A stretch of 64,000 nt of DNA from an uncultured Eubacteriales bacterium (GCA_964646425.1 CAZYEI010000001.1:4731-68730), one strand, 5' to 3'; counted from the stretch's first letter, positions 4,162 through 34,841 are shown. Made by a program: numbers and translations. The notes: generated by a model not told the origin, from the letters alone.

Positions 4162-5553
4162 TTAGTCAGCCTCAGTTTTTCCACCAATAAATTCAGCAAC
4201 AGCAGTATATACTACATTATTTTTAGAAATTGCTTTTCTTTGATCAGTCCACTTAGTAACAATAGCTGCATATGAATCATTTTTAACATCAACTGTGTAG
4301 GCATTAAAAATATTAAATAATCCCCATGTACTATTTCCTTTTACCTTGTATGACCATGTATTCCAGTGAATATCAAATTTATTTAAATAAGCTAAACACT
4401 TTCTCCACGATTCAATTTCAGAATGCATAGTAAATTCTCCCATTAAAATTGGAATGTTTAATTCAGCAGCAACAATGCGATCGATTTTATTCTTCATTTC
4501 TCCAAATTGAACTTCAACATTATTATAATCGCTCCATGTATATTGATGATATTGATACATGACATTTTCCCAATCTCTATTTTCAGGTCTAGGCAAATTT
4601 TCAACATCCCAACAAGATGACATTATAATAGTATGGTCAAAATCAATATTTCTTATCGCTTTATACAAGCGATCAAAAAAATCATATTCCCAACTAGTAG
4701 TAACATTTCCAGTCACACTTCCTGCGGGTTCATTTAAAATATCATAGGCAGCAATCACTGGATTATCTTTATATCTTTCAGCTAGAAATTCCCATAATTC
4801 TACTGTTTTATCTCTAAGTGCATCGCCTAAATCACCATAATACCACATTCTATCTCCTCTACCAGTATCTCCAGAATGATCTTGCCCATTTTGGCTACCT
4901 GGTGCACCATGTAAATCAAGAATAATATATATTCCTCTTTTTCCAGCTTCTTCGATATAATTATCAATTTTTGCCATCGAATCTTCCCTAACTGTGAATT
5001 TTAATGCTTTAAATTCTGCTGCAGTCAAATCTTTTTTAGCCATTACTGTATAATCAGTATCCCAAACATTCATATAAGTAATCGGAAGTCTAATACTATT
5101 TAATCCTAATTCAACGCAATTATCCCAATCTTCATCAGTCCAAAAGTTATCTTCATAAATTGAAAATAATTCATAAGCCTTATCTTTGCCAAATCTCTCA
5201 GTTAAAGTATTTAAAGCATCAAGTTGACATGAAGCATTTGTCAGTGTCATCCAATTTTCTTGCACGAACAAAGAACCGATATTTGTTCCTCTTAATTGAA
5301 CTGGTTCACCAACACCCTTATTTTTCATCATTTTTGGTTTTCCATATAAATAACCAACGCTTAAGAAATCGTATTCTCCAATTGGTGTTATTTGTTTATT
5401 TGCTGAAGATTGGCTTATAGTATTTGATGTTTGATTAGAAGAACTAGTTAAACTATTAGTTGAATTTTTATTTACGCTATTATTAGAATTACATGCATTT
5501 AAAATCGGTAATAATAAAAGACTAGATAATAGAATAATAAAATTTTTTTTCAT
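4162..5553 (-). CDS. Glycoside hydrolase family 5 lipoprotein, similar to exo-beta-1,3-glucanase (GH5_9-type)
   Basis: A lipobox signal is present (LLLLPILNAC) followed by an S/N/T-rich linker. The catalytic region IILDLHGAPGSQNG...ILNEP...GEFTMHSE resembles fungal-type Exg GH5 enzymes, with an NEP acid/base residue and a GEF nucleophile. Confidence 0.75.
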   Translation of the reverse strand: MKKNFIILLSSLLLLPILNACNSNNSVNKNSTNSLTSSSNQTSNTISQSSANKQITPIGEYDFLSVGYLYGKPKMMKNKGVGEPVQLRGTNIGSLFVQENWMTLTNASCQLDALNTLTERFGKDKAYELFSIYEDNFWTDEDWDNCVELGLNSIRLPITYMNVWDTDYTVMAKKDLTAAEFKALKFTVREDSMAKIDNYIEEAGKRGIYIILDLHGAPGSQNGQDHSGDTGRGDRMWYYGDLGDALRDKTVELWEFLAERYKDNPVIAAYDILNEPAGSVTGNVTTSWEYDFFDRLYKAIRNIDFDHTIIMSSCWDVENLPRPENRDWENVMYQYHQYTWSDYNNVEVQFGEMKNKIDRIVAAELNIPILMGEFTMHSEIESWRKCLAYLNKFDIHWNTWSYKVKGNSTWGLFNIFNAYTVDVKNDSYAAIVTKWTDQRKAISKNNVVYTAVAEFIGGKTEAD

Positions 5554-5565
5554 TTTTTAAATCCC

Positions 5566-6576
5566 CTATTTCATTGAATTTCGCTTTATAAATGTTGTAG
5601 GAATTCGTACCATTTTTTCTTTATATTCAGTATCATTCAACAACATATCAATTAATAAATTAGCAGCTGTTTCTCCAATTTTTTTAGTATCTTGCCTAAT
5701 AGTTGAAATACTTGGCTTATAGTATCTAGCGTATTCAATATCATCGAAGCCAAACACTGAAACTTGTTCTGGTACTTTAATATTACTATCTTCAAGTGCT
5801 ACAATAGCTCCCATGGCCAATAAATCAGAAACAGCAAAAATAACTTCTGGCAATTTATCGCATCTATCAATCATTTTTTTCATTGCGGTATATCCACTTT
5901 CAAAATCGTAACTTTCTGATTGAGTATACCATTCATCACGATATTCAAAGTTAAATTTTTGTTGATACTTAAAAAATGAAGTAAAGCGTTCAGTAAATGA
6001 ATAAGCACTATATGGCCCCATCAACAATCCCACACTCTTTGCTCCCATTTCATGAGCATAAGCAAAAGCCTCTTTAACACCATTATTATTATCACTAATT
6101 ACTGTTAGTACGTCATCAGTTACATAATCTGTAGACACAACCCTTAGTTCACTCTGAATGATATCATCTAAAAAATTATCTGATGATTTACCAGCGGCAA
6201 TTAAGACACCGCTAATATTTCTATTGCGACAATAATCTAAATAGTTTGTCTTATAATCACCTATTTTTGAAACAATAAAAGTCATCTCAAAGCCTTTAGC
6301 TTCAATTGTTTTCTTAAAACTTTGAAGTACTGCTGAAAAGAATGGATGTTCTAATCCAATATCTAACTCTTCCGAATATAATACCCCAATTGTATTACTT
6401 ACTTTAGCTTTTAAAGTTCTTGCATTTTGATTAGGAACATAACCAACTTTTCTAGCATATTCAATAATCATTTTTCTCTTTTCTTCACTAATTCCAGGAT
6501 TATTATTAAGTGCTTTAGAAATAGTACTTGGTGCAAAATTTAATTCTCTAGCTAATTCATAAATCGTTTTTTTCAT
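5566..6576 (-). CDS. LacI-family transcriptional regulator
   Basis: An N-terminal helix-turn-helix (TIYELARELNFAPSTISKALNN) is followed by a periplasmic-binding-protein-like sugar-binding domain. It lies 12 nt upstream of the GH5 gene. Confidence 0.9.
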   Translation of the reverse strand: MKKTIYELARELNFAPSTISKALNNNPGISEEKRKMIIEYARKVGYVPNQNARTLKAKVSNTIGVLYSEELDIGLEHPFFSAVLQSFKKTIEAKGFEMTFIVSKIGDYKTNYLDYCRNRNISGVLIAAGKSSDNFLDDIIQSELRVVSTDYVTDDVLTVISDNNNGVKEAFAYAHEMGAKSVGLLMGPYSAYSFTERFTSFFKYQQKFNFEYRDEWYTQSESYDFESGYTAMKKMIDRCDKLPEVIFAVSDLLAMGAIVALEDSNIKVPEQVSVFGFDDIEYARYYKPSISTIRQDTKKIGETAANLLIDMLLNDTEYKEKMVRIPTTFIKRNSMK

Positions 6577-6694
6577 TTTGGATTTCCTCCTAAAACATAT
6601 ATACTTTATGTAATAAAGTATATCATATATTTAAAAATATTGGAAACTTTTTCCACATAATTTCTTATTTAAAGAAACATTTAAGAAATAAATC

Positions 6695-7462
6695 TTATAA
6701 ATACTCTCGATTTTTATCTAAATCTATATATTTTTCCTCATTTTTTATTTTGTAATAACGAACATAATCGACTTCCATTGTAACAGGAAAAATAGAATCA
6801 TCTATTCCTCTACTTCCACCCCATTCTCCACCTATGGCAATATTCATAATTAAGGAATATGGATGATCAAATGGCCATTCTTTGTATGTATCGTTTTCTT
6901 TTTTTAGAAGCGAATAAATTCTTATATCATCAACATAAATATCAATAAAATCTTTTGTCCATTCCAATGCATAGACATGGAATTTTTCACAAACATCTTT
7001 TACATAAACTCGACCACCTCTTTGAGTATTAAATCTATGATTGCATGTTTCGGTATGAAACCAGCAATTAATAAAATTTGAGTTATATCCAACATGTTCC
7101 ATTAAATCAATTTCACCACATGCTGGCCATCTCATTGCTCTATTTTCAGGATGACCAATAAACCATAAGGCAGGCCAAGTTCCTCTTCCTTTAGGAATTT
7201 TAGCTTTTATTTCAATTCTTCCATATTTAAAATTATATTTATCCCTTGTGTTGATAAGACAAGATGTATATTCTTTATTTTGATATTTTTCTTTTTTTGC
7301 TATCAATACTAATTTGCTATCTTTAATATAATAATTATCATTTTTATAATACTGTAATTCTTTATTCGGAGAATCTCTTCTATCAATAACTGTCCATATT
7401 TTATCATTCAAAGTATTATCATCAAAATGATCTTCAAATATCAACTCTAATTCTCTACCCAT
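6695..7462 (-). CDS. Glycoside hydrolase family 16 (laminarinase / beta-1,3(4)-glucanase), cytoplasmic
   Basis: The GH16 catalytic motif ExDxxE occurs as GEIDLMEH. The 255-aa beta-jelly-roll-sized product has no signal peptide. Confidence 0.8.
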   Translation of the reverse strand: MGRELELIFEDHFDDNTLNDKIWTVIDRRDSPNKELQYYKNDNYYIKDSKLVLIAKKEKYQNKEYTSCLINTRDKYNFKYGRIEIKAKIPKGRGTWPALWFIGHPENRAMRWPACGEIDLMEHVGYNSNFINCWFHTETCNHRFNTQRGGRVYVKDVCEKFHVYALEWTKDFIDIYVDDIRIYSLLKKENDTYKEWPFDHPYSLIMNIAIGGEWGGSRGIDDSIFPVTMEVDYVRYYKIKNEEKYIDLDKNREYL

Positions 7463-7480
7463 TTTTTGTTTCCTTTCTTT

Positions 7481-7505
7481 TAAAAAGAGGCTTTAAAAGC
7501 CTCTT
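7481..7505 (-). terminator. Intrinsic terminator or attenuator after the 968-aa lipoprotein gene
   Basis: A hairpin AAGAGGCUU...AAGCCUCUU is followed by UUUUUA on the minus strand. The GH16 RBS follows directly after it. Confidence 0.5.
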
Positions 7506-7510
7506 ACTAA

Positions 7511-10417
7511 TTAGTTTTCATTAATTGTAAATACTTCTAATGTATACATAGAATATGGATAATTACTACCTTTTTCTAAACATGTTATTTTAACATATTT
7601 CGCATTTATAATTGTTTCTAGATTGATATAATCATGTCTTTTTTCTTGAACAGGTGTTGTTCTATATTGACAAACTGTTTCCCAATTTATTCCATCACTT
7701 GAAACTTCAATATCATATTGAGCAGCATTTGCACCTTCCCAATAAACATGAAAACCATAAATAGTATATTCTTTATCTAATGTTATTGTAATAGTAGGAG
7801 CACTGCCATCATTAATATCATCTTTAGTTGCAATCCAACGTGAGCCATCATTTCCATCAATAACAGAATCTCCATTTCCTGAAGTTGCTTCAGCATTTGC
7901 GCCTAGTGATGATAAAGCAACATTTACTAAATCATATTTAACATTTTGTTCTATTGTGTAGAAAGAATTATCGGCAATTGTACTACCTAAGGCTTTAACT
8001 TTTACAGTATAATCAAACAACATTGTTAAATCGTTTTCCACAAATTTAAATTCAGTTGTAGTAGTTGTGTAAGTATTTCCATTAATAATTACTTCATATC
8101 CTATAGCATTTTCGACTATATCCCATTTAATACCATTATAATCTGCAATAACATTTGTTGGAGCATTTAATTTTGTTTCACTAATATTGACTGTAAATTC
8201 TAATGAAGATACTTTACTACGATTAATTGTAATTTTATTTGTTGTTTCGCCATTAGTATAACTAACAGCTTTAATTAAAACATTATATTCCCCATTTAAA
8301 AGTTCAGCTAAACCTAAATCTATTGTTGTATTTGTAACAATTATTTCATATTCAATCGTAGGAATTGACACAACATAATATAAGGCATTTTCAACTTCAT
8401 CCCATGATAAATATAAAGTATCATTATCATATCTAATATTTTCTGGTCCAGCAAGATGATTTTCATTGACAATAATTGTTACTTCATTACTCCAAGCTGA
8501 AGGAGTTCCCCCATTATCTGCCATTGCTCTAATTTTTGCAGTATAAGTTCCAACAGGTAAATTTAAATCCTCAATATCAACTGAATAAGCAGTTCCTGAA
8601 TCAATTTCATCATCATATGATGTATAATAAGCTCTAAAATCATCAAATCTTATTTCATATCCACGATTCCAATTTCCAGTTGTCCAATTTAATTTTCCCT
8701 CAGATACAGATAATGATGAAATCGGCAATATTTGTCCAGCACCATTTACAGAAGTAGTAAATTTTACAAAATTTGAACTTTGATGTGTTGTTCCATTTCC
8801 TACAAACTGAACTACAAAATCCATATCTTCTGCCGTTAATGATTCTGCAAGTCCATTTAATCTATAATTATATGTTCCTACTGAAATTGGAAGTTCTCGA
8901 CGTAAAACACCATTTACATATACACGAACACTTGTAGCCCCTTCATACGCATTTGTATCCCATGAGAAAGAACTAACATTTTGAGTAATATAAGGATCTG
9001 CAACTTTTGGTAATTCAGAAATTGTTCCAAATTGAGTATTGCTTTCTCCCATTGCAATATAACCAACAATATCACCAGTTAATACATTAATTTTAACATT
9101 ATATTTTGTATCTATTGGCATACCATAATCAGCATATACGAATTCATTTGTAGTAACAATAAATACTTTATCTAAATCAGTAAATGTAATTTCATATCCC
9201 GTTGCAATATCAATTGCATCCCATGTTGCCTTTTTAGAATCTAATTTAACATTTTTAATTTCTAAATATTTACTTAATAATTCATCTAATTTATTTTTTA
9301 ATTCATCTGCATTATCTAATTCATTAAATATATTTTTTTGTGTTTCAGTTAAATTATCTAATTTAGTATTTACAGCATCAATGCGTGCTTTATCTTCCAA
9401 TGTAGCATTACCAAATGTAGGTAATTCTTCGATTAAATTAGCAATATATGCAACAACAGCACCATCATCTGCTGCAACTTGATAATCAAAAGAAATTGTT
9501 GTAGAAGCATTTCCAACTTGAATTGTAGCAGTTAGAACAAGAGTCCATTGCTCAGGTTTAGCTGGAAGAGTAATAATTGTATCATTAATAACTACATCAT
9601 CATCATTTGCTGACCATGAGATAATAGCATCATAATTTCCACTTATTAAAACTGATAAATTTTTATTATCGATTAATTCAGGCTTTATAAGGCTATCAGC
9701 AACTTTATTTACTCGTAGCAAATCATTTGCAATTATTTCATATACAAAATCAATACTATTTGTTATTGATCCTTTACTAATTGTAGCAGTTAATGTAAAT
9801 GTTGTGCCATCAAGAAAAGCATCTTCAGAGACATTTAAAATATTATCCTCAATAGTTGCATAATCATTTTGTGAAATTGTCCATTCAATTGAAACATCAT
9901 ATTTATTATCTAAAGTAATTAAAGTAACTCGAGTATTGTTATAATCTATTTCAGGCTTAGCAAGTACACCTTTAACTAAATCAATCTTTTCTTGTTCAGT
10001 ATAACCATAAACGATAGGCTTAAATTCAACCTTATGAATACCAGTCCCTTTATATTCATAAGTTGCCGTTAAGATAACAGTTGTATCATTAAGTGGTTTT
10101 GTAAATTTACCAGTTTCTGAAATTACACTTGTATTTTGAGAATGCCATGAAATTTCAATATTATATCCCTCTATTGAAGTAGGTAATGTAATATCACAAT
10201 CCACAACGTTTGGAATATAGCCTTTAATTATTTCATCAATTTTTGCCATTGTTTCACCAATATTTTCTACACTTATTGAACTAGATGGCTTATTAGTAGA
10301 ACTATTTATACTAGGTACAGAACTTGAATTTGGAATAGGTTTCGAATTATTTTCTCCACCACAAGCAGCAAGAACAAAACACATACTAGCAACTAGAAAT
10401 TTTAAATGCTTATTCAT
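7511..10417 (-). CDS. Large multi-domain surface lipoprotein with Ig-like/FN3-like repeats and a C-terminal F5/8 type C (discoidin) domain. It probably binds glycans.
   Basis: A lipobox is present (FVLAACGG) followed by an S/N-rich linker and repeated beta-sandwich segments. The C-terminal region ...NAEATSGNGDSVIDGNDGSRWIATK...YIKITCLEKGSNYPYSMYTLEVF is typical of a discoidin/F5_F8_type_C domain. Confidence 0.65.
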   Translation of the reverse strand: MNKHLKFLVASMCFVLAACGGENNSKPIPNSSSVPSINSSTNKPSSSISVENIGETMAKIDEIIKGYIPNVVDCDITLPTSIEGYNIEISWHSQNTSVISETGKFTKPLNDTTVILTATYEYKGTGIHKVEFKPIVYGYTEQEKIDLVKGVLAKPEIDYNNTRVTLITLDNKYDVSIEWTISQNDYATIEDNILNVSEDAFLDGTTFTLTATISKGSITNSIDFVYEIIANDLLRVNKVADSLIKPELIDNKNLSVLISGNYDAIISWSANDDDVVINDTIITLPAKPEQWTLVLTATIQVGNASTTISFDYQVAADDGAVVAYIANLIEELPTFGNATLEDKARIDAVNTKLDNLTETQKNIFNELDNADELKNKLDELLSKYLEIKNVKLDSKKATWDAIDIATGYEITFTDLDKVFIVTTNEFVYADYGMPIDTKYNVKINVLTGDIVGYIAMGESNTQFGTISELPKVADPYITQNVSSFSWDTNAYEGATSVRVYVNGVLRRELPISVGTYNYRLNGLAESLTAEDMDFVVQFVGNGTTHQSSNFVKFTTSVNGAGQILPISSLSVSEGKLNWTTGNWNRGYEIRFDDFRAYYTSYDDEIDSGTAYSVDIEDLNLPVGTYTAKIRAMADNGGTPSAWSNEVTIIVNENHLAGPENIRYDNDTLYLSWDEVENALYYVVSIPTIEYEIIVTNTTIDLGLAELLNGEYNVLIKAVSYTNGETTNKITINRSKVSSLEFTVNISETKLNAPTNVIADYNGIKWDIVENAIGYEVIINGNTYTTTTTEFKFVENDLTMLFDYTVKVKALGSTIADNSFYTIEQNVKYDLVNVALSSLGANAEATSGNGDSVIDGNDGSRWIATKDDINDGSAPTITITLDKEYTIYGFHVYWEGANAAQYDIEVSSDGINWETVCQYRTTPVQEKRHDYINLETIINAKYVKITCLEKGSNYPYSMYTLEVFTINEN

Positions 10418-10436
10418 ATTATTCCTCCTAAAAAAC

Positions 10437-10448
10437 GAAATCGTTTTC
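10437..10448. promoter_or_regulatory. cre/LacI-type operator-like palindrome (GAAATCGTTTTC) in the 5'UTR of the 968-aa lipoprotein gene, just upstream of its RBS
   Basis: The near-palindrome AAACGAAATCGTTTTC has a central CG. It matches the cre consensus TGNAANCGNWNNCW with one mismatch and shares its core with the sites at 10478 and 30074. Confidence 0.4.
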
Positions 10449-10463
10449 TCTAATTACAATTAT

Positions 10464-10492
10464 AATATAGCATTTTTTGAAATCGCTTTCAA
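10464..10492 (-). promoter_or_regulatory. Promoter of the 968-aa lipoprotein gene (TTGAAA-17-TATATT). A cre-like site, TGAAAGCGATTTCA (10478..10491), overlaps its -35 element.
   Basis: On the minus strand, TTGAAA (10492..10487), a 17-nt spacer and TATATT (10469..10464) form the promoter. The 14-mer TGAAAGCGATTTCA fits the catabolite-responsive-element consensus exactly. Confidence 0.5.
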
Positions 10493-10604
10493 TGATTTAT
10501 CGTTTATTTTTTTATAAAAAATAGAAATATTTCTTAAAATAATTAATTTAAATGGAAATGTTTCCAAAATAAAAGAAGCAAGTTTCCTTACTTCTTTAAA
10601 AAAT

Positions 10605-13600
10605 TTATTTAATATATGCAATTATTTGGTCATAATAACCATCACGAACTTTTTTAGCAATATCACCTTTAACAACATTGACAGTTGTTTTAACATTGTC
10701 TTTAATTAATTCATAATGAGAAATACAATTATCATTATAAACATTTTTCGCCTTATTTACTTTATAAGTAACTAATGTTTTTCCTAATAATTTAAAAGAT
10801 ACTTCACCATCTTTAGTGAAAAATGAACTGTGAATATGTGGATTAAGCGCCAATTTTAATTCATTATCTTCCATAATAAACATATGCTTTCCTACCATCA
10901 TATACAACCAAATACTTAGCATTTCAGCAGTTGTTCCTGAAAGTCTAGCAACAAAACCTTGTCCGTGAGTTAGAGGATCAGGATTTGCACTTGAAGCTAT
11001 AAATGAAGAATGTTCCATTGGAGATCTACCATAAACCGCAGGATTCATAAAACATACCAGATTAGTCTTCATCGCTTCATGGAATTCTTTATATAATCCA
11101 GCCTTTAATAAACCAAGTAAATACTTATATGTCATATGCATAAAATTTGATTCTCTTTCAAGCCATCCTTTAGTAAAGGCTCTAATTCTACCAATTTCTT
11201 GAGTTTCACCATCTAAATCTGCACTTGTTTTATATGTTTTAAGTTTTTCATCATAAATATCTGATTCTTTGATAAGCTTATACATTTCTTTAAGTTCTTG
11301 TTTATCTTTAACAACTTTTAAGGCTCTTGCAGGCCCTTCTAAGAATTTAGGCAATTCTCTAATTTTAAATTCTTTAACCTTGACTAAATTATATCCTTTA
11401 TAACCTGTTTTAACATTACCATTTTCATCTTTGATTAACTCATAATCAGTAACATCATATGCAATAAAAGTAGGATAAATTCCATTTCCTAATTCTTTTG
11501 CTTTTTCAATTGCAGAATTTAATTTAAGTTGCATTTTCTTTAAAATATTAGCAAAAGAATCAGCAGAAATCTCAATTTCGCCAGTAGCACCTAAACGTAA
11601 TTTTTCACGATAATCTTCTCTAGCACTACATACTTCATCCCAATATTTAAAATCATTGTTATATGTATCTAAAGCATTTTCAACTTTCTTGATAAATAAT
11701 TGTAATTCATTTGTTATATATAATTTTCCATTTGGATATTTTTTTGTCATATCAACTAAGAAATTTACAATCTTTAATGTTTCAAATGTTTCACTTACAC
11801 CAGAAGCAAACAATCCAGGTAAGCCATTCATAGCATCATTCCAACCTGGTTTTCCTGCTTCCATTTCAATACCAATTCCTTTATTATCTAATAATGCAAA
11901 TTTGTTAAATGCCAAAGAAAATAATTTTGAATATAAGTTTGTATAAATAATTTCTTGATTATCATATTTCGCCCAGTTTGTAGTCCATTTATTAATATTA
12001 AATTTATTAATTTTTAAATCATCTTCATGATATAAAGAACCATATTGACGAATTTTTCCTGTTTTTGTTAAAACAGTCTTTGCACTTCGAGGTTGGACAA
12101 AAGCACAAGATTCATAATATTTATAATCTTTTTCTTCAAATAAAGCTCTTTCTTCTTCATCAGGATATACTGATAAAAAGTTATCAACTAAATCCATTAA
12201 ATAAGAAAAATGATCGACCCAGAATCCTTCACCAAATGAAGCTTCAATATTTTGAACTGATTCTCCTAAAATTTGAGATAAATACTCGTCTTCAGTTAAT
12301 TTAGTTTTAACACCATTGTTTTCAACTGTATTAACAATGCTACCTGGAGTAAAACTATTTGATAGCAATTTAGTCATTAGCTCATGATGACTAGCAAAAC
12401 ATGTATCTACAATTTTACTAACATCTGCATTATTTACTAAATTAAATGTTGTACCATTAATTCCTAATGGATTATAACCATCTTGTTGAATCAGTGAAAC
12501 AAAATATTTTAAATTATAATCTTTTACTTTAGGACAAATCAAAGAATCACTTCTTCTATTTTGACAAATGTCACGGAAATTTCCATTACCTTGAGAATAA
12601 TATTCCGGAGCAATTGAAAAGAAATTATAATCTCTCTCTAAATCTCCATGTCTTCTTGAATATAAATAATAAATATACTCTTTATCTTTTGCTTTAAAGG
12701 CAAAAGGATATCCTCCACGAAGTAAATTGTCTAAATATGTGTTCTTTAAATATTCATCAAAAATAGGGAATGCTGTATGTGTTTCAACATCGCTCATCAT
12801 AATTTCAATTACATCTTTTGCTTCTTTTTCTTTTTGATTTACATATTCATGCGAACATAAATGAGGCAAAATTGCATTAAATGCTTCTAATGAATGGCAA
12901 TTACCTATAATAGTATCAAGACGTTTAGTTTCACCAGATTTTAAACATAAAGTAACTGGGGTAAAACCACACAATACTTTATTTGTACAATATTGAGGTT
13001 CTGCTTTCAAAGCCTCAATACCTCCCTTTACAAATTTATCATTTATATTTGTATATGAATTATCATAGCCAAATACAACATATGGATCACAAATAGGTTT
13101 AATTAGTTTGTTGTCAACAAAAGACAAGTAAAAATTACCTTCATAAACTTCAGCAACTTCTTCAGAATCACCTGTTGATGCTCGTAATTTATAGAATGCA
13201 CAATCATTTTCAAGATTGAATACTCCCATCCAAGAACGAAGTAAATTAGACATTACTTTAAATGAACCGTGTTCAGTTCCAGGAGTAAATATTTGTGAAC
13301 ATCCATCCAATAAATCAATTTTTAAATCACTATTCGAAATATTTGTTACTTCAACTTTTCTTACTAAGCCAACAATCGGCTCATTTGGAAGACCAAAATA
13401 AGTAACATCAACTCGAATACCAAGTTTTTTATTTTCTTCACTTATTCTGAATTTTTCTCTACTAATATACATTGTTCTTTTAGCAGAATCATTTTTTACA
13501 CAAAATATTTCTTGTACTTTATTATTTATTTTTACAAAAGTTCTAAAACCAATTCTATTAATAACTTCATACGCAGTGTAAGCAGGGAAAAATTCAAGAA

Positions 13601-13781
13601 TGGCACCATTTTTGTCTCTAACACCAAAACTACTCATTCCTTGGCCTCTATTTACATAAAAAGACCAACCTGGTACTCCTTTCTTACCAGCAATCGCTGG
13701 TAAAAAACTAGAAAATGTTTTTTGTTTATCAAAATTTTCAATTACAAATTCACCATTTGAAAAATAATAATCTTTTTTCAC
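10605..13781 (-). CDS. Large intracellular protein, possibly a GH94/GH149/GH161-like glycoside phosphorylase such as a beta-1,3-glucan phosphorylase. The function is not established from sequence alone.
   Basis: The 1058-aa product has no signal peptide. It is the last gene of an operon with GH16 and CUT1 ABC transporter genes and lies 12 nt after the GH16 lipoprotein gene. Its size and context are typical of beta-1,3-glucan phosphorylases, but I could not verify a catalytic motif by eye. Confidence 0.35.
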   Translation of the reverse strand: MKKDYYFSNGEFVIENFDKQKTFSSFLPAIAGKKGVPGWSFYVNRGQGMSSFGVRDKNGAILEFFPAYTAYEVINRIGFRTFVKINNKVQEIFCVKNDSAKRTMYISREKFRISEENKKLGIRVDVTYFGLPNEPIVGLVRKVEVTNISNSDLKIDLLDGCSQIFTPGTEHGSFKVMSNLLRSWMGVFNLENDCAFYKLRASTGDSEEVAEVYEGNFYLSFVDNKLIKPICDPYVVFGYDNSYTNINDKFVKGGIEALKAEPQYCTNKVLCGFTPVTLCLKSGETKRLDTIIGNCHSLEAFNAILPHLCSHEYVNQKEKEAKDVIEIMMSDVETHTAFPIFDEYLKNTYLDNLLRGGYPFAFKAKDKEYIYYLYSRRHGDLERDYNFFSIAPEYYSQGNGNFRDICQNRRSDSLICPKVKDYNLKYFVSLIQQDGYNPLGINGTTFNLVNNADVSKIVDTCFASHHELMTKLLSNSFTPGSIVNTVENNGVKTKLTEDEYLSQILGESVQNIEASFGEGFWVDHFSYLMDLVDNFLSVYPDEEERALFEEKDYKYYESCAFVQPRSAKTVLTKTGKIRQYGSLYHEDDLKINKFNINKWTTNWAKYDNQEIIYTNLYSKLFSLAFNKFALLDNKGIGIEMEAGKPGWNDAMNGLPGLFASGVSETFETLKIVNFLVDMTKKYPNGKLYITNELQLFIKKVENALDTYNNDFKYWDEVCSAREDYREKLRLGATGEIEISADSFANILKKMQLKLNSAIEKAKELGNGIYPTFIAYDVTDYELIKDENGNVKTGYKGYNLVKVKEFKIRELPKFLEGPARALKVVKDKQELKEMYKLIKESDIYDEKLKTYKTSADLDGETQEIGRIRAFTKGWLERESNFMHMTYKYLLGLLKAGLYKEFHEAMKTNLVCFMNPAVYGRSPMEHSSFIASSANPDPLTHGQGFVARLSGTTAEMLSIWLYMMVGKHMFIMEDNELKLALNPHIHSSFFTKDGEVSFKLLGKTLVTYKVNKAKNVYNDNCISHYELIKDNVKTTVNVVKGDIAKKVRDGYYDQIIAYIK

Positions 13782-17109: not shown

Positions 17110-19557
17110 TTATAACACCTCGAATCCTTGAGCTGAAACTTTTGTTTCACCATAAGTAAGAGGTGAATCACTATAGTTTATTACAATTTTCTTTCCATTA
17201 CTATATTCATTTACAATTAAACCATTTTCTAATTTTGTACGATTAATCCAATCTGCATTAATTACTTTTCCTAAAGCACTATCAACTTGTGTATAAATAT
17301 TCTTAATCATCTCTTTATATAATGAATATTCAGTTGAATAATAATTTGAACTATTAGTATATGATAAATAATGCGAAGATTCTTGGCTTAAAACAAATGA
17401 AGGATAAACATTAAAATCTATCATTTTTAAAATACTTTCTTGATCATAGAAACTAAAATTACTATATGGTGCATATAGTTCCATACAACCATTTAAAACT
17501 AATTGTAGTAGTGGGATTTCTGTTTCTTCAATTAAATGTTGACTATTAAATACCGGAATATTGAAATATCTATCAACATATTTCCATAAATATTTATTTG
17601 GTTGTTCAGCATTTACCATACCTTTTCCATCTAAATATTTAAAAGCATTTTCAATATTTTCCATTGCTTTTTCTCTAGTGCCTTTATTATTTGATAAAAC
17701 ACGATTTGAAATACCAGTTACAGTCATTGAATTAATATTAGTTTTTTTACTTAATTCCTTATTTTGTGACTTAACCCATTTTAGTGAAGCATCACTTCTT
17801 GCATAACCAAATTCATTAATAAAGTAATGATTAAATGAAGTATATTCAATATATTTTCCATTATAATGTTTTGTTGCATTACCACTGAAACTTATTTGAC
17901 TTTCATTAATTAAGAAATAATCTTGGGAGAATGAAACATCAACATTTTGTTTTTCCATACTTGAAATTAATGATTTATATTCACTAGCAGTTCCTATTTT
18001 ACTTGTAAAATCTGCTTTATCAGGTCGTCCCAAAGTAATTCCTCCACTTTGCCAACCTAAAAGAGAAGTAACAATGTTGTCAATTCCATTATTTAAAGAA
18101 TCGTTTAAAATTGCTTTTACATCATTTGCTGTTGTTACAACAGCATCACTTGTCCCAAGAACACTTTCTTCAGCATCAGCCATAATGAAGTCTAAACGAG
18201 TAATAATATGCTCATTTTCAAAATTTTTCTTTGTTAATTGTTTTTCTTCATTTATTAAATAATCACGATAAGCCTTAGCAACACCAACATAGTTAGCATT
18301 ATCTCCTTCTAAAAAATCATAACGCATACCAATATCATAATCAAATGGATTATCATTTAATACCGGTGCACTAGATGTGCCATCTTGAGAATAGTATTCA
18401 GTATAATCAAAATTTGTTCTAAATGTTGCATATGCATAAATATAACTATCATTATCCGCGTTATCCGGACTAACATTAATAGCCATATGTTGTTCACCTT
18501 TAGTTGCATAAGCTACAACAGCTTTTTGTGAATTAGTTGCAGTTTCATTATGAACAACACCAAACATTGGCATTGATGCATCTTTCAAAGGAACCGTTGT
18601 TCTTCCTGATTCTGGACTATAATGTTGTTTATTTGTAGTATAATTTTGACCATATACATATGACTTATATACGCCAAGAGTTACATTACTATCTACAAAT
18701 GGAATAATTGCACCTGAACCATCAGGAACAATTATATATCCTTTAGCCATTTCTTTACTTATTTTTGTCTTAGTATCATAATCACCATTTTCAACAAATG
18801 TCTTAATTGTTTCTCCAGTTTCCGGATCAGTTGAATCTGATTCAACTTTTTTTGAAACAAATGGGCTACCTTCTCCACCTGTTGCGCCAATAAATGGGGC
18901 TATTGTTATATCTATTAATCTGTTTTTATCTGCACCAGTAATTTCTTCGTGACGAAGTTCAAATTCAATGCCTTTTTCATCAAAATAAATATGAACAGAA
19001 AGATTAATATCAGCCCATACTCCAATTTGAAAATCTAAACGATAGTGAGTATCACTATTATCGATTTTCATTAAAGTAGACTTACCATATTTTGGATTTT
19101 CATGAGCACTTGAAACTTTAAATAAATTAGTCATTGCTTTATCATCTTTTTTATAAATATATGCAGTAACTAAAGAATTGATTATTGAGTTTCCTGTTGT
19201 ATCTTCATATAAATCACAAACATAATTTGGATCAGCATTCATTGCCTTTCGACATGCATCTCTTGCTTCTCTTTTTGTTTGATAAGGAACATCAGCTCCT
19301 GTTTTCCATAATATTTCTTTTGAATTAACATCTTGAATTTGAATAATATCTAATGATTCTTTATATGAATATATATATTTACTATTACGATATAATTCAA
19401 CATATGTATCTTCATCCTTTGAAGATATGGCAGTTTTGGCAATTTCTTTTGTTGAGTTGTTATTTGCTTCTTCATTTCCAGCAATATTAATCAATGAAGA
19501 TAAAGGAAGCAAAAATACAATTAGTGCTAAATACTTAATTTTTTTAACTAATGACAT
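17110..19557 (-). CDS. Secreted protein of unknown function (815 aa) encoded within the ABC transporter operon
   Basis: The signal peptide MSLVKKIKYLALIVFLLPLSSLINIAG follows a strong Shine-Dalgarno sequence, AAGGAGG, and the start overlaps the upstream gene by 14 nt. I recognise no catalytic motif. It may be a DUF-type glycan-processing or glycan-binding protein. Confidence 0.5.
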   Translation of the reverse strand: MSLVKKIKYLALIVFLLPLSSLINIAGNEEANNNSTKEIAKTAISSKDEDTYVELYRNSKYIYSYKESLDIIQIQDVNSKEILWKTGADVPYQTKREARDACRKAMNADPNYVCDLYEDTTGNSIINSLVTAYIYKKDDKAMTNLFKVSSAHENPKYGKSTLMKIDNSDTHYRLDFQIGVWADINLSVHIYFDEKGIEFELRHEEITGADKNRLIDITIAPFIGATGGEGSPFVSKKVESDSTDPETGETIKTFVENGDYDTKTKISKEMAKGYIIVPDGSGAIIPFVDSNVTLGVYKSYVYGQNYTTNKQHYSPESGRTTVPLKDASMPMFGVVHNETATNSQKAVVAYATKGEQHMAINVSPDNADNDSYIYAYATFRTNFDYTEYYSQDGTSSAPVLNDNPFDYDIGMRYDFLEGDNANYVGVAKAYRDYLINEEKQLTKKNFENEHIITRLDFIMADAEESVLGTSDAVVTTANDVKAILNDSLNNGIDNIVTSLLGWQSGGITLGRPDKADFTSKIGTASEYKSLISSMEKQNVDVSFSQDYFLINESQISFSGNATKHYNGKYIEYTSFNHYFINEFGYARSDASLKWVKSQNKELSKKTNINSMTVTGISNRVLSNNKGTREKAMENIENAFKYLDGKGMVNAEQPNKYLWKYVDRYFNIPVFNSQHLIEETEIPLLQLVLNGCMELYAPYSNFSFYDQESILKMIDFNVYPSFVLSQESSHYLSYTNSSNYYSTEYSLYKEMIKNIYTQVDSALGKVINADWINRTKLENGLIVNEYSNGKKIVINYSDSPLTYGETKVSAQGFEVL

Positions 19558-21658
19558 TTCTAATCGCCTCCTTAAACAACGAACCAACATAATCAATCAA
19601 ATCACCAGCAAGCATTGTAATTATTAATATTACTAATAAAATTATCAACATAAATCCGATAGTAATAATAATACTCTTTATTGTTTGCCAGAAAGTATAA
19701 TTATGAATATTTTCAATACCCATAAAAATCATAAATCCTGTTAACCCAATTCCAGCATATTGAATTACTTGTAATAAAAAAACATCATCATATGTCAAGA
19801 AATGAGATAATATTGTAACAACAATCATTGAAATCATCCATGGAACAAGTGAATATCCAATCGTACGATAAATTGAAATCATTGTTCCTTCACCATCTTG
19901 AATAGAGGTTACCATATAATTACAATATATAAATAAACCAATAATGCCAACATATCCAGCAGTTAAAGCAATAAAGTCAACTTCAAAGGCTTCGACATAT
20001 TGATAGATAAATCCTTTACCTATTGTATACCATAAGAAAACTGCAAATGTAATAATATATAAAACTGTTGCCGCTAAAGTTGAACCTCTTTTTCCAGCCC
20101 TTAAATCATAAAAACTATCAGTTGGTTTCACTAATAATTGGTAAGTAAATTTTAAATCTTTAACCAGTTTAACATTATCTACCTTATTTTTAGCATTAAC
20201 AGCCACAGCTAAGCAATTAGTTCTCTTATGAACTTTCTTTAATATTACAATAGCAATGATTGCAATAAATAAAATCACTAATGCTGTAACTAAGTTATTT
20301 TGAATCCAAATATTACGAACTTCCCAATAAGCTTTTGAATATGATTGTCTATTTCTCGCAATTTCCAAATGGTACATTGCACTTTCATAATCTTCATTAT
20401 ATAAGTAATTTAAACCAATGTTATTATGAGCAAGTGAAGACATTTGATTCAATTCAATTACTTCTTCCCATAATGCAATTGATTCATCATAATGACCTAA
20501 ATCATATTCAGCAAGTGCTGCATAGATTTTTTTAGAGTAATCAGTAGGTGTAAAAGTGTGAACTGCAGCTTTTTCACTATCTAAACACCATATTTTTCCA
20601 TTATTATCAACAGCAATAGAAACTAATGAAGAGAACAATCCATCAATATCTTGAGTACTATCAGGTGTTTTACCACCAAACACACATAAAAATTCACCAT
20701 CATTAGTGTAAATATAAATATATCCATCATTACTTGCAGCATAAACAATACCTTGAGAATCAACATAAATATCAACTGGTGAGTTTGAAGAAACTAGATC
20801 ATACTTTGTAAATTGATTTACTCCTGCAGTATTGTGTTTTTGAATAAAAGCATAAGGTTTTGAATAATTTGTTGTAGTGTATAATAAACCATCTTTATCA
20901 GTAAATAAATTACTAAATAAAGGTGCTTGAATTGCTAAACCTAAATTTTCTTTTTGTTCTGTTGTAAATAGAATATCGTAAATATAATCCATAATTCCTT
21001 TAGTAACTTTGTTTGTTGCAAAATAGCCAAGGAATGAACCTTTCTTATCTAATTGAATTACACCATCGCCAATTCCATCTGCGATAACATAAACATTTCC
21101 ATTAATGTCGGCAGAAACTTTAGAAGGTTCAAAATCACGATCTCTAAATAAAGTGCTTGTTGGTTTTCCAAAAGCTGTATAATACTCAAATTTAGATGAT
21201 GAATCATTATATTGATAAATATATACATTTCTTGCTTCAGAATCCGCAATATAAAGCAAACGATTATTTAATTCGTTATTATATGTTATAAATACACCTC
21301 TAGGATTTTTTATATTTTCTCCTTCAATTGTATATAACAAATTCATATTATCATCAAAAACACGAACAGCACCCAAAGTATTTTTATCTAATTTTGAATC
21401 TGCAATATAAATAATATTGTCTTCATCAATAAAAATATCGTTTGGTTTATTTAGTCCAATATCTGTTAATGTTTTATTTGGTAAATAAGCATCTTGAGTT
21501 CTAATTAAACCATGTCCTCTTGCATCAAGAGAATATGTATATGATGTTGCATTTCCACTCATTTCTACTACCATAATATCTTTATTTTTTGGGGCCATTG
21601 CGAAACAAGTGAATAAAATAAGGACAACCGCAACAAATCCTTTTAATTTCATTTTCAT
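19544..21658 (-). CDS. Signal peptide + NHL/beta-propeller-like repeats + TPR + C-terminal polytopic Yip1-like membrane domain (704 aa)
   Basis: An N-terminal signal peptide (MKMKLKGFVAVVLILFTCFAMA) is followed by repeated ...IYIAD/VYVIAD/IVYAASNDGYIYIY... blades typical of NHL/YVTN propellers. TPR-like helices follow (ALAEYDLGHYDESIALWEEVIEL...NNIGLNYLYNEDYESAMYHLEIA), then a TM helix and a region of about 5 TM segments resembling the Yip1/DUF1282 family. The ORF is adjacent to, or overlaps, both neighbouring genes. Confidence 0.55.
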   Translation of the reverse strand: MKMKLKGFVAVVLILFTCFAMAPKNKDIMVVEMSGNATSYTYSLDARGHGLIRTQDAYLPNKTLTDIGLNKPNDIFIDEDNIIYIADSKLDKNTLGAVRVFDDNMNLLYTIEGENIKNPRGVFITYNNELNNRLLYIADSEARNVYIYQYNDSSSKFEYYTAFGKPTSTLFRDRDFEPSKVSADINGNVYVIADGIGDGVIQLDKKGSFLGYFATNKVTKGIMDYIYDILFTTEQKENLGLAIQAPLFSNLFTDKDGLLYTTTNYSKPYAFIQKHNTAGVNQFTKYDLVSSNSPVDIYVDSQGIVYAASNDGYIYIYTNDGEFLCVFGGKTPDSTQDIDGLFSSLVSIAVDNNGKIWCLDSEKAAVHTFTPTDYSKKIYAALAEYDLGHYDESIALWEEVIELNQMSSLAHNNIGLNYLYNEDYESAMYHLEIARNRQSYSKAYWEVRNIWIQNNLVTALVILFIAIIAIVILKKVHKRTNCLAVAVNAKNKVDNVKLVKDLKFTYQLLVKPTDSFYDLRAGKRGSTLAATVLYIITFAVFLWYTIGKGFIYQYVEAFEVDFIALTAGYVGIIGLFIYCNYMVTSIQDGEGTMISIYRTIGYSLVPWMISMIVVTILSHFLTYDDVFLLQVIQYAGIGLTGFMIFMGIENIHNYTFWQTIKSIIITIGFMLIILLVILIITMLAGDLIDYVGSLFKEAIRNVIS

Positions 21659-28378: not shown

Positions 28379-30049
28379 TTAATTTTGAACTAATTTAACA
28401 TCCTTAATATAGAAAGTAATATCATCTGCTAATAAACCAAGTTCAATTGTTACCTTATTAACGCTATCGATTTCAGCAGCATTAATATTCAATGTAATAG
28501 TTTGGAAATCATTAGATGCAGATATTTCTGTTTCAGCATATGAAGTATAAGGATTTTGATTTTGAATAAAGGCAACCTTCATAGCGATACTTGTTTTAAT
28601 TTTGAATGTTAATGTATAAGAAAGTCCACCAATACATGGTAAATTATTCATATTTATTTGGTTAACATATGATTGTTCCCCTTTTCCTAAAGTATGAATT
28701 TTTACAGAGCCGTCTGTTTCATCGCTAAATGATTGTGTAATCCATGTTTCACACCATGAATCTTCTTTAAATTTAGCAGCATTATATGTTGGTAATAAGT
28801 TTGAACCAGCAGCAACAACAGTAATTGTACGTGAATCAGTAGTCTTATTTCCAGCAGCATCTTTTACTTCATAATTAACAGTATATGTTCCTGCTTTTGA
28901 AACATCTAATGTTGTAATTTCATTTCCATTATATGTTGCCTTAATATTAGCAGTTACATCACCATCAATATTATCACTAGCTGTTATTCCATGTAAAACG
29001 TTAAACTTTGTTGAAGATTCAGAAATTTTAATATTATTCATTCCACTAAATGAAGGTGCAGTTTCATCGACAACAGTGCCATCAAAAACGCCAACATAAA
29101 CATCTGTAAACCATAAAGTTGTCATTACATCTGCAGTTGGAGCAACTTTACCCATACTAAACAAGATTGAGCAACCATCTAATGTTGCATGAGTTGCAGT
29201 AAATGTATATTCAAATTCTTGCCAAGTAGAAGTAACTTCTGCAGTATAGATTTGTTGATCAGAAGTAAATCCTTCATACCAAGGAGATGCAGGCATTAAT
29301 TGACCAATAGAAACTTCGACGTATTTTGTAGTTAATGCTTTTGCTTTAAATGATACTTTATAATTTTGGCCACCAGTCATAGTAAAGCGCATATCTTCGC
29401 CACTGCCATTAGTTGCGTATGTTGCTGAGTTTAACCTTGGAGAAGATGCATTTGTCCAGTTTAATCCAGTCATAACAACTTTAGCAGCATTTTTGTTTTC
29501 TCCCATTACATCAGTTTTTTCAACTGAGAATTCGCCAGTACCACCTTCATGAGTAGCTAATTCCCAATCTTTTGTTCCTAGTTCAAAATTTGCATTTGAA
29601 ACTAGATTTCCAGCAGTAACAGTAGCTTCTATGATTTCAACATTTCTAGTAGCAGTTTCAGTTATTTCAACTCCACCAGTTTTAAAAGTTACTGAATAAT
29701 CAATTTTACAAGTACGAATTTCACTTGTATCAAGTAATTTTCCATTCAATGTACAATTAGATGTAGCGGTAGTTCTTGTCTTTAATTCAATACCAGTAGA
29801 AGTTAAAACACTAACTCCATCAAATACATTATAAGAGCTATGTTGTACAGCTTCACTTTCAACGCCAGAGAAATCATAAGCAATTGTTACTCCAGGGTTA
29901 ACATTAGTAGATTGTGAAGTACTTGGTGTGATAGACGGTGTTGATGTGCTTGATGAATTTGAAGTGGGTTTTGATGTATTATTTCCACCACAAGCAGCAA
30001 GAGCACATAACATCAATGTGGCAAGACTTGCCGTAAATATTTTTTTCAT
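28379..30049 (-). CDS. Surface lipoprotein with a DUF5011-type Ig-like domain and a CBM4_9-like carbohydrate-binding domain
   Basis: A lipobox is present (LMLCALAACGG). The segment ITASDNIDGDVTANIKATYNGNEITTLDVSKAGTYTVNYEVKDAAGNKTTDSRTITVV is a textbook DUF5011 pattern. The NANFELGTKDWE motif resembles the start of a CBM_4_9 domain. Confidence 0.6.
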   Translation of the reverse strand: MKKIFTASLATLMLCALAACGGNNTSKPTSNSSSTSTPSITPSTSQSTNVNPGVTIAYDFSGVESEAVQHSSYNVFDGVSVLTSTGIELKTRTTATSNCTLNGKLLDTSEIRTCKIDYSVTFKTGGVEITETATRNVEIIEATVTAGNLVSNANFELGTKDWELATHEGGTGEFSVEKTDVMGENKNAAKVVMTGLNWTNASSPRLNSATYATNGSGEDMRFTMTGGQNYKVSFKAKALTTKYVEVSIGQLMPASPWYEGFTSDQQIYTAEVTSTWQEFEYTFTATHATLDGCSILFSMGKVAPTADVMTTLWFTDVYVGVFDGTVVDETAPSFSGMNNIKISESSTKFNVLHGITASDNIDGDVTANIKATYNGNEITTLDVSKAGTYTVNYEVKDAAGNKTTDSRTITVVAAGSNLLPTYNAAKFKEDSWCETWITQSFSDETDGSVKIHTLGKGEQSYVNQINMNNLPCIGGLSYTLTFKIKTSIAMKVAFIQNQNPYTSYAETEISASNDFQTITLNINAAEIDSVNKVTIELGLLADDITFYIKDVKLVQN

Positions 30050-30073
30050 TTTATTATTTTCCTCCCTTTGTAA

Positions 30074-30085
30074 GAAATCGATTTC
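30074..30085. promoter_or_regulatory. Perfect 12-bp palindrome GAAATCGATTTC (cre/LacI-type operator candidate) in the 5'UTR of the lipoprotein/ABC operon, just upstream of its RBS
   Basis: The 12-mer is its own reverse complement and has a central CG. The same core occurs at 10437 and 10478 before the other surface lipoprotein gene. Confidence 0.45.
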
Positions 30086-30157
30086 GATATAATTGAATAA
30101 AAAAATACGCTACTTAATATTTTTTTATCTATTATTCAAAATATTTTTTACATTAAT

Positions 30158-30186
30158 ATTATATTAAATATTGTAAGCGGTGTCAA
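30158..30186 (-). promoter_or_regulatory. Consensus sigma-A promoter (TTGACA-17-TATAAT) for the polysaccharide-utilisation operon
   Basis: On the minus strand, TTGACA (30186..30181), a 17-nt spacer and TATAAT (30163..30158) form the promoter. It implies a 5'UTR of about 100 nt that contains the palindrome. Confidence 0.55.
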
Positions 30187-32794: not shown

Positions 32795-33015
32795 TCCCCC
32801 TTAATTATAAAAAAAGCATAATTTTAGAACGAAAAAACATCGTGCCATCTAGAATTCGCTTTCTTATAGTATCTTTAACGCAGATATACGATTAAGCTCA
32901 AAAAGTGTTTGCAAATAAAATAATCATGTTTCTTTTTCACCATAAACAAGAACTCTCTAGGCACTTTCTAATTACTGCTTGCTTTTTTCATCGCTTAGAA
33001 TAAATATCTAACTGG
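32795..33015 (-). promoter_or_regulatory. Putative T-box leader (tRNA-Asn specific) upstream of asnS
   Basis: The leader is about 220 nt long. It contains a stem-I-like GCGAUGA...AGCAGUAAUU (AGUA box) and AGAGAG, a candidate specifier GAAACA (AAC = Asn), and a degenerate T-box sequence AAUUCUAGAUGGCACG whose UGGC would pair with an NCCA end carrying a G discriminator. A U-run precedes the RBS. Confidence 0.45.
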
Positions 33016-34196: not shown

Positions 34197-34841
34197 TTAT
34201 TCTACTAATTTTCTCCATGTATTACATCCAACTATTCCATCAACTATTAATCCATTATTTCTTTGATATGATTTTATTGCTTGTAAAGTAGCATTTCCAA
34301 CTATACCATCCATCGAAATATTGTAATTATTATTTGCAAGAATTTCCTGAAGAACAAAAATATAATTTCCTTTACTTCCATTTTTTAAAGTCGGATAGCC
34401 AGCCCCACAAGCTGCTTTGCCATATCTTTTATCAATATGAATCCACCTAGGTGTCATACTTATCGGTTCAACATATGACCATATCCCCATTTTCACTGCT
34501 AAGTTTCGAAGTTTTTTTCTTTGTGAAGATGTTAAATTTTGAGCAATGTCTAAAGCTGTCCCTGCATAATGTTGACTTTGTGAAGCATGGCCACCACGAG
34601 TTATTCTTTGAAAAGCAAAGCCAACATAAATTGGACTTCCCCATTTTGCTCTAAATTTATTAAATGCTTCCATTGTTTGTTTACTTGTCCACAAAACATT
34701 AGAATTACTGCTTCCTCTAAACTCTTTAACAGATAAATACTTATTTTTAATATATGGCATTTGATCAGTTAAATTTTTATTATATCTTTGAATTTTTTGT
34801 GTTACTTCATCATAAACATATATAATCATAGTTATATTCAC
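34197..34841 (-). CDS. Peptidase M15 (VanY/DUF882-like zinc D,D- or L,D-peptidase) with a C-terminal PG_binding_1 domain. It has an endolysin-like architecture and no signal peptide.
   Basis: The metal-site region GGHASQSQHYAGTALDI...WIHID is typical of Peptidase_M15_3. The C-terminus LQEILANNNYNISMDGIVGNATLQAIKSYQRNNGLIVDGIVGCNTWRKL is a typical peptidoglycan-binding repeat. Confidence 0.65.
   Translation of the reverse strand: MNITMIIYVYDEVTQKIQRYNKNLTDQMPYIKNKYLSVKEFRGSSNSNVLWTSKQTMEAFNKFRAKWGSPIYVGFAFQRITRGGHASQSQHYAGTALDIAQNLTSSQRKKLRNLAVKMGIWSYVEPISMTPRWIHIDKRYGKAACGAGYPTLKNGSKGNYIFVLQEILANNNYNISMDGIVGNATLQAIKSYQRNNGLIVDGIVGCNTWRKLVE

Follow-up and report, generated by a model that had tools for sequence, protein, structure and literature searches.

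Leader palindromes at two predicted beta-1,3-glucan operons as the most likely operators of a locus-encoded LacI-family repressor

Introduction

The operators of LacI-family repressors and the catabolite-responsive elements (cre) of Bacillota are recognized by both their sequence and their placement. In Escherichia coli, the centre of lacO1 lies just downstream of the transcription start, with the gene for its repressor, LacI, linked to the target, and PurR binds an even palindrome of 16 bp that has AAA/TTT arms and CpG at its centre. In Bacillus subtilis, repressing cre sites typically lie over the promoter. A survey of the LacI family found that 1173 of 1303 regulators have even palindromes centred on CG, with the sites mostly near the start codon and most of the local regulators autoregulated (PMC4052901). 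By its arrangement, the closest characterized analog of the system described here appears to be GlyR3 of Clostridium thermocellum, a LacI-family repressor whose gene lies between those of a GH5 (celC) and a GH16 (licA) enzyme in the celC-glyR3-licA cluster; it is negatively autoregulated via a 14-bp CG-centred cre-like palindrome near the celC start, and laminaribiose relieves the repression (PMC5483248). A second point of reference is the Acholeplasmatales, which, unlike other Mollicutes, are reported to have a CcpA homolog (ACL_RS05870 in A. laidlawii) besides the HPr kinase, with TTGTAAGNNCTTACAA as the predicted site of that homolog (Fisunov et al., PMC5138195).

The locus considered here lies in a window of 64 kb, by which we mean the whole stretch of DNA that was analyzed, and resembles the GlyR3 operon in its gene order of GH16, LacI-family gene, and GH5.

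Organization of the locus

All genes around the sites are on the minus strand. Pfam and PDB comparisons identify among them two GH16 genes, a GH5, a homolog of GH161 phosphorylases, two sets of ABC-transporter permease genes, and a LacI-family gene, a content that points to the utilization of beta-1,3-glucan (laminarin-type) by the products of two predicted operons, read from the promoters P2 and P1:

10605..30049, minus strand: operon A, predicted to be transcribed from P2; surface/lipoproteins, a solute-binding protein, four ABC permease genes, a Yip1/TPR protein, DUF5696, GH16, and the GH161 homolog
4162..10417, minus strand: operon B, predicted to be transcribed from P1; a 968-aa lipoprotein (aBig_2, F5/8 type C), GH16, the LacI-family gene, and GH5
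5566..6576, minus strand: LacI-family regulator gene (336 aa), in operon B after GH16 and before GH5; the proposed repressor
30049..30047, minus strand: ATG of the 556-aa ORF downstream of the P2 leader
10417..10415, minus strand: ATG of the 968-aa first ORF of operon B

The 1058-aa product of 10605..13781 (minus strand) has no Pfam match and is a homolog of solved GH161 beta-1,3-glucan phosphorylases (PDB 9qqk, E 3.5e-215; also 9h8v). Proteins of ~1000–1060 aa, likewise without a Pfam match, occur in most of the orthologous loci from other lineages (L009, L010, L012, L093, L094; L numbers designate the fetched loci), the likeness to the 1058-aa ORF being one of size alone. A further block (17110..21658, minus strand) codes for an 828-aa DUF5696 protein and a 704-aa Yip1/TPR/NHL membrane protein along with ABC permease genes, and this set is kept in glucan loci across lineages (L009, L094, L097–L101). 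Structure comparison found no solved homolog of the DUF5696 protein. We consider it and the Yip1/TPR/NHL protein candidates for unassigned steps in beta-glucan uptake or degradation.

The remainder of the window consists of housekeeping genes, so P1 and P2 are its only catabolic promoters. In that remainder, 34197..34841 (minus strand) codes for a protein combining Peptidase_M15 and PG_binding_1, which is kept in the syntenic congeners L097 and L100 and would be odd in a wall-less Acholeplasma-like host, to which the regulator's nearest named relatives point.

The LacI-family regulator

The regulator combines a somewhat divergent LacI HTH domain (PF00356, 31.9 bits) with a Peripla_BP_1/3 sugar-binding domain (PF00532/PF13377). 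Its identity as CcpA is ruled out by a score of 122 bits against TIGR01481 (ccpA), the cutoff of which is 442, and it reaches no NCBIfam equivalog. The best PDB match is E. coli PurR (E 2.7e-37, full length), with the Leu-Lys pair of the hinge aligned with PurR L54-K55, which fits the invariant central CG of the operator motif described below. The chain ends where dimeric PurR ends and would therefore have no C-terminal tetramerization helix, so that DNA looping between sites is not expected. Across 32 aligned orthologs (41–92% identity), the recognition helix (APSTISKALNN) and the hinge (AR.LK) are near-invariant and L54 is invariant; one shared DNA motif is thus expected for the group.

Homologs are numerous in metagenomes, the named ones coming from Acholeplasmataceae, Acholeplasma equirhinis, Izemoplasma, and 'Tenericutes' bins; a search of genome contigs with the single regulator protein returned only an unrelated LacI-family gene of Virgibacillus. 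Public assemblies gave no exact match to the regulator, and the source contig was matched only by the first gene of operon A, at 100% identity. The ortholog adjoins a GH16 or GH94 gene in every context fetched, and its other neighbors include GH3, GH30, the ~1000–1060-aa protein without a Pfam match, and the DUF5696/Yip1/ABC genes. The GH94 family includes laminaribiose and cellobiose phosphorylases.

The regulator gene has a promoter-like sequence of its own (TTTCCA-18-TATACT), the -35 of which is overlapped by a palindrome of the form TGGAAA-N3-TTTCCA (6641..6655, minus strand). Counterparts of this palindrome occur in related loci (L002 802..816, L003 7739..7753, L004 697..711), with the arms kept and the spacer changed (AAG vs TTG) in the sister lineage whose regulator is 92% identical, and a similar TGGAAA-N2-TTTCCA lies at 10553..10566, ~60 bp upstream of the P1 -35. 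Their half-sites are like the operator arms described below (GGAAA/TTTCC) at a spacing 1–2 bp too short; such palindromes could be low-affinity autoregulatory sites, sites of another protein, or chance occurrences.

Promoters and palindromes

The two intergenic regions ahead of the operons contain the following elements:

30158..30186, minus strand: P2 (operon A), TTGACA-17-TATAAT, 12 of 12 consensus matches
30172..30185, minus strand: P2 -35 site, TGACACCGCTTACA on the minus and TGTAAGCGGTGTCA on the plus strand; matches the cre consensus TGNAANCGNWNNCW and overlaps the P2 -35
30074..30085, no strand assigned: P2 leader site, perfect palindrome GAAATCGATTTC, a motif match and putative operator of the locus-encoded repressor
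10572..10597, minus strand: intrinsic-terminator-like hairpin ending operon A, directly after the stop of the GH161-like gene
10464..10492, minus strand: P1 (operon B), TTGAAA-17-TATATT with a TG extension, 10 of 12 consensus matches
10478..10491, minus strand: P1 -35 site TGAAAGCGATTTCA, overlapping TTGAAA at 10492..10487 and matching TGNAANCGNWNNCW exactly
10437..10448, minus strand: P1 leader site GAAAACGATTTC, an exact motif match and putative operator of the locus-encoded repressor

P1 lies downstream of the operon A terminator, and the minus strand there reads, in order, the terminator-like hairpin, P1 with TGAAAGCGATTTCA on its -35, GAAAACGATTTC, 7 nt, and AGGAGG. The corresponding order at P2 is TTGACA-17-TATAAT, a leader of ~105 nt that includes the palindrome GAAATCGATTTC, 7 nt, and GGGAGG. 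The first-pass annotation had listed three palindromes (10437..10448, 10478..10491, and 30074..30085), all of which are present where it placed them, and had put the first and third directly before a Shine-Dalgarno (SD) sequence, from which each indeed ends 7 nt upstream. Its description of both promoters as near-consensus TTGACA-17-TATAAT is accurate for P2 and not for P1, and its placement of the sites at promoters, conversely, applies to P1 and not to the P2 leader site, which lies ~72 nt downstream of the -10 and hence not beside the promoter. Its further argument, that such strong promoters would call for tight repression, is speculative. With the start assumed 7 nt after the -10, the P1 leader site occupies ~+9..+20, and the P2 leader site lies at ~+66..+77; a consensus scan found no second promoter near the latter. 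The centres of the leader sites are ~26 and 30 bp upstream of the respective ATG, and those of the -35 sites are ~67 (P1) and ~129 bp (P2) upstream; these positions are compatible with repression, for which a site would overlap the promoter or the transcription start or lie at roughly -140..-30 from the start codon.

The palindromes are far more frequent than composition would predict. The motif GAAATCGNTTTC is found at 3 sites in the 64-kb window, as against 0.03 expected (100 dinucleotide-preserving shuffles, none reaching 3), and these are confined to the two intergenic promoter regions of the glucan locus; a strand-wise count gives four matches because 30074..30085 is perfectly palindromic. 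One-mismatch matches to the operator core lie in coding sequence at 5365, 8027, and 59837, and upstream of an AsnRS-like gene at 32852 (11.2 bits with the weight matrix described below). The leader motif, GAAA-N-CG-N-TTTC, is an even palindrome with a central CG, as the LacI-family operator rule has it, and the leader-site results as a whole are in line with the rules of that family (PMC4052901). With their flanks included, the leader sites fall outside the cre consensus, the outer bases being G/A...C/T and not T...A.

The P1 leader operator extends to GAAAACGATTTCGTTTT(TT) (10432..10448, minus strand), in which a second palindrome, AAAACG-ATTT-CGTTTT, is set in another register and followed by a T-run, the whole resembling a weak terminator or attenuator. 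This extended sequence recurs in the sister lineage (L003 6209..6225) and once in a distant locus (L094 12542..12560).

Conservation of the motif in related loci

For comparison we used 11 loci of other lineages with an ortholog of the regulator (37–92% identity), 181.7 kb in all, with the window left out. The form GAAANCGNTTTC has 18 exact matches in these loci, as against 0.17 expected (maximum of 2 in 100 dinucleotide shuffles), every one of them upstream of glucan-locus genes; no occurrence was seen at any other promoter in the ~180 kb. Taken together, the shuffle counts in the window and in the orthologous loci rule out a chance origin of the palindromes. A metagenome scan with the regulator alignment yielded four useful orthologous loci (L013–L016), one of which (L015) has no exact motif site; the other 76 were generic LacI-family loci that served as controls only. 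In the commonest layout, TATAAT is followed by 8 nt, usually ending in TAG, and then by GAAACCGATTTC (L010, L012, L013, L016, L093; 9 nt in L094), and this TATAAT-N8-GAAAnCGnTTTC arrangement would set the operator over the transcription start. Some promoters have two or three copies of the motif (L012, L093, L096).

A weight matrix was built from 14 sites of distant loci only, i.e., with both the window and the 92% sister lineage left out. Its consensus is (A/G)GAAA[C/T]CG[A/G]TTTC(C/T), with GAAA and CG invariant in 28 of 28 half-sites. When this matrix was run on the 64-kb window, the two leader sites took the first two ranks, 10437..10448 with 17.0 and 30074..30085 with 16.9 bits, followed at rank 3 by a site in coding sequence with 13.3 bits. 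Closer relatives are consistent with this: the P1-equivalent promoter of the sister lineage (L003) keeps GAAAACGATTTCGTTTT exactly amid diverged surroundings, and the P2 leader block TCGAAATCGATTTCTTACAAAGGGAGG is invariant in the congeneric syntenic loci L097–L101, the first genes of which are 68–71% identical. Since the motif is conserved with the orthologs and the two leader sites are ranked first and second by an independently derived matrix, we infer that the leader palindromes are most likely the operators of the locus-encoded LacI-family repressor, which would bind them to control the two beta-1,3-glucan operons. The first-pass annotation had left the choice between CcpA and the local LacI-family regulator open; for the leader sites, this comparative evidence assigns them to the latter.

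The sequences GAAAACGATTTC or GGGAAAGCGCTTTCCC also occur just upstream of unrelated LacI-family genes (L018 3273..3284, L043 9780..9791) on high-GC metagenomic contigs from other phyla, whose LacI-family proteins are 25–30% identical to the regulator. Other branches of the family thus employ the GAAAnCGnTTTC core as well, and its presence is not in itself enough to tell which protein is involved.

Sites on the -35 hexamers

The palindromes that overlap the -35 hexamers appear to constitute a second, looser class, marked by cre-type TG...CA ends. That 10478..10491 overlaps a -35 element and matches the cre consensus exactly had been recognized in the first pass; however, its three palindromes are neither a single class nor the full set, as a fourth site (30172..30185), absent from that list, lies on the P2 -35 and belongs with the P1 -35 site in this cre-type class. 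Written as motifs, the two classes are GGAAAnCGnTTTCC for the operator and TGWAANCGNTNWCA for the cre. Among the intergenic sites of the window, only those at 10478 and 30172 match the cre consensus; the other matches in the window, 13850 and 51869, are inside GH16 and Asp23 coding sequences and were taken as chance.

Cre-consensus 14-mers fused to a -35 hexamer (TTGAAA, TTGCAA, or TTGACA) are found at seven promoters, viz., P1 and P2 of the window and those in L010, L012, L014, L093, and L094, and further sites of the TGTAAG/TGTAAA type lie near other promoters of L012, L013, and L096. At P2, the sequence comprising the -35 site, GTTGACACCGCTTACA, is invariant in L097–L101, which differ from one another in the spacer, the -10 region, and the upstream DNA, and one half of the site is identical to TTGTAAGNNCTTACAA, the predicted site of the A. 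laidlawii CcpA homolog. The sister-lineage promoter (L003) lacks the P1 -35 site, which is thus dispensable in at least one relative. We consider it slightly more probable than not that the -35 sites are catabolite-responsive elements for a CcpA homolog, which would add glucose repression; the CcpA alternative of the first-pass annotation, which does not suit the local regulator, is in this form plausible for the -35 class. The fetched loci contained no informative sugar promoters besides the glucan ones, and no ccpA, ptsH, or hprK gene was found in the 64-kb window.

In L010, a TTGACA promoter is closely preceded by a perfect match to the cre consensus, TGAAACCGTTTACA (7376..7389). The genes that follow it have no connection to sugars (a small ORF, an HTH_3 protein, and a transpeptidase), and next to them is a possible prophage, a block of small genes without annotation.

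Alternative explanations

The strongest competing explanation is that a single regulator accounts for all four sites, these being operators of the local LacI-family repressor, with the -35 sites as weaker auxiliaries and no involvement of CcpA; the T at position -7 of the -35 sites would then be forced by the TTG of the hexamer. The P1 -35 site has the complete GAAAnCGnTTTC core, and five of the seven -35 sites are within one base of it and could thus be weaker operators of the same protein. Moreover, every promoter at which a -35 site was seen also has a leader operator, and an operator-to-operator spacing of 42–45 bp recurs (P1 of the window, L012, L014, L093). However, the operator matrix that gives the P1 -35 site 10.0 bits (rank 7) gives that of P2 only 0.7 bits (rank 84), yet the latter is invariant in congeners. 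Furthermore, the outer base distal to the -35, which is free of any constraint from the hexamer, is A in 6 of 7 cre-type sites versus 2 of 28 leader-class half-sites (Fisher p=1.1e-4), and the arms of the cre-type sites vary (TGTAAG, TGCAAA, ATTCA, TTACA), whereas GAAA is constant in all 28 leader half-sites. The protein is also predicted to lack the LacI-type tetramerization tail that looping between sites would use. A single regulator at all four sites thus appears the less likely reading, although the P1 -35 site, which conforms to the local operator core as well as to the cre consensus, may be a cre-type site or an auxiliary operator and could serve both proteins.

An action at the RNA level, in which the palindromes, as leader hairpins by the SD, would influence translation, stability, or attenuation, is highly improbable. 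It would account for the position of the gene-proximal site, which ends 2–13 nt before the SD in most promoters, and within the extended sequence that is also present in L003 and L094, the P1 leader has the potential to fold into GAAAACGAUUUCGUUUUUU, a hairpin of 8 bp with a U-run behind it (-5.7 kcal/mol). The whole P2 leader is likewise conserved, and the long hairpin predicted for it takes in the site (z=-2.7). Nevertheless, the motif by itself folds no better than shuffled sequences (P2, -1.8 kcal/mol, z=-0.4), the P1 leader reaches only z=-1.4, and copies upstream of or inside promoters are untranscribed (L094, L095). The conserved feature is instead a DNA palindrome with the invariant arms and central CG that are the signature of the LacI family. 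Rfam gave no match to any RNA family within the 64-kb window, and 2 of 34 predicted pairs co-vary, in a comparison of three sequences.

As an observation on the P2 leader itself (~105 nt, 30047..30151, minus strand), it is, with its counterparts (L097 and L100 9899..10003), far better conserved than the DNA upstream of the promoter, and its predicted fold is a long AU-rich hairpin (-16.6 kcal/mol) in which the 5' end of the leader is paired with the operator region.

That all the sites are cre for CcpA/HPr-Ser-P, with the local LacI-family protein using some other site, draws on the cre matches at 10478..10491 and 30172..30185 and on the CcpA homolog and HPr kinase reported in Acholeplasmatales, but is very hard to sustain given that the leader sites, flanks included, do not conform to the cre consensus, that their motif tracks the orthologous local regulator across lineages, that the predicted A. 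laidlawii CcpA site is of the TGTAAG and not the GAAA type, and that no other conserved palindrome fit for the local regulator was found at these promoters.

Discussion

We propose a model in which the local repressor acts on the leader sites of two operons and a second, cre-type class of sites lies on the -35 hexamers, and we put the probability of this model as a whole at about 0.7. By analogy with characterized LacI-family repressors, a dimer of the repressor would sit on the leader operators in the absence of inducer. At P1, a repressor at ~+9..+20, a classical location for such a block, would prevent initiation or promoter escape. At P2, one at ~+66..+77, just before the SD, may act as a roadblock to transcription, the likeliest mode there as the consensus scan found no second promoter near that site. 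This is the weakest step of the model; repression at such a distance calls for either a roadblock or an unrecognized proximal promoter. A beta-1,3-gluco-oligosaccharide, probably laminaribiose or a relative, would release the repressor. As the regulator gene is inside operon B, it would be negatively autoregulated, and a CcpA homolog on the -35 sites would add repression by glucose. The most economical reading, and one to which we incline slightly, is a design in two tiers: the -35 would carry a cre-type site for a CcpA homolog, and the specific operator would lie either at the start or farther along the leader.

More tentatively, and with somewhat less confidence than an even chance would warrant, we suggest that an undescribed orthologous group of LacI-family regulators from Acholeplasma-, Izemoplasma-, and related uncultured lineages runs beta-1,3-glucan loci through conserved two-tier promoters. 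The loci in question would combine GH16, GH94 or GH161, and ABC transporters with a cre-type site for a CcpA homolog fused to the -35 hexamer and an GGAAAnCGnTTTCC operator at the start or in the leader. If true, the two-tier reading would be the first regulon-level evidence of CcpA-type repression layered on a substrate-specific switch in Mollicutes-related bacteria.

The GAAAnCGnTTTC motif has no entry for A. laidlawii in supplementary Table 4 of Fisunov et al. 2016, and our literature search found no paper linking GH161 loci to a LacI-family regulator. The arrangement is probably a standard LacI-family operator and repressor, with cre-type catabolite control probably added, in a lineage where it has been undescribed; as the mechanism would be textbook LacI-family repression, the conceptual gain is small. 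The results do provide a testable operator motif and regulon for an uncharacterized LacI-family group in little-studied, mostly uncultured Acholeplasma-like bacteria, the predicted regulon comprising GH16 endoglucanases, a GH161 beta-1,3-glucan phosphorylase, GH5, DUF5696, and two ABC transporter systems. With the motif, laminarin/beta-glucan utilization loci can be annotated in metagenomes, and DUF5696, the Yip1/TPR protein, and the large lipoproteins, all of unknown function, can be assigned to beta-glucan use.

Among the known systems, the Bacillota CcpA/cre pair is approached by the -35-overlapping sites, both of which match TGNAANCGNWNNCW, and is unlike the present system in that the locus-encoded regulator is not CcpA and the leader sites with their flanks depart from the cre consensus. 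PurR shares the HTH and the hinge-helix Leu-Lys pair with the regulator, but the overall similarity is low and the effector and regulon differ; PurR needs a corepressor for DNA binding, whereas in the sugar-sensing LacI-family repressors the ligand causes release. As with LacI and lacO1, the P1 operator is centred just downstream of the inferred start, and the genes of repressor and target are linked; unlike LacI, the 336-aa regulator is predicted to have no C-terminal tetramerization helix. GlyR3, which we liken to the regulator by its arrangement, has TGAACGCGCGTACA as its operator in place of the GAAA[A/T]CGATTTC found here, and the regulon predicted here is much larger, with two operons that include ABC transporters and a GH161 phosphorylase and with two sites per promoter; the laminaribiose-type effector established for GlyR3 is, for the present regulator, an expectation drawn from this likeness.
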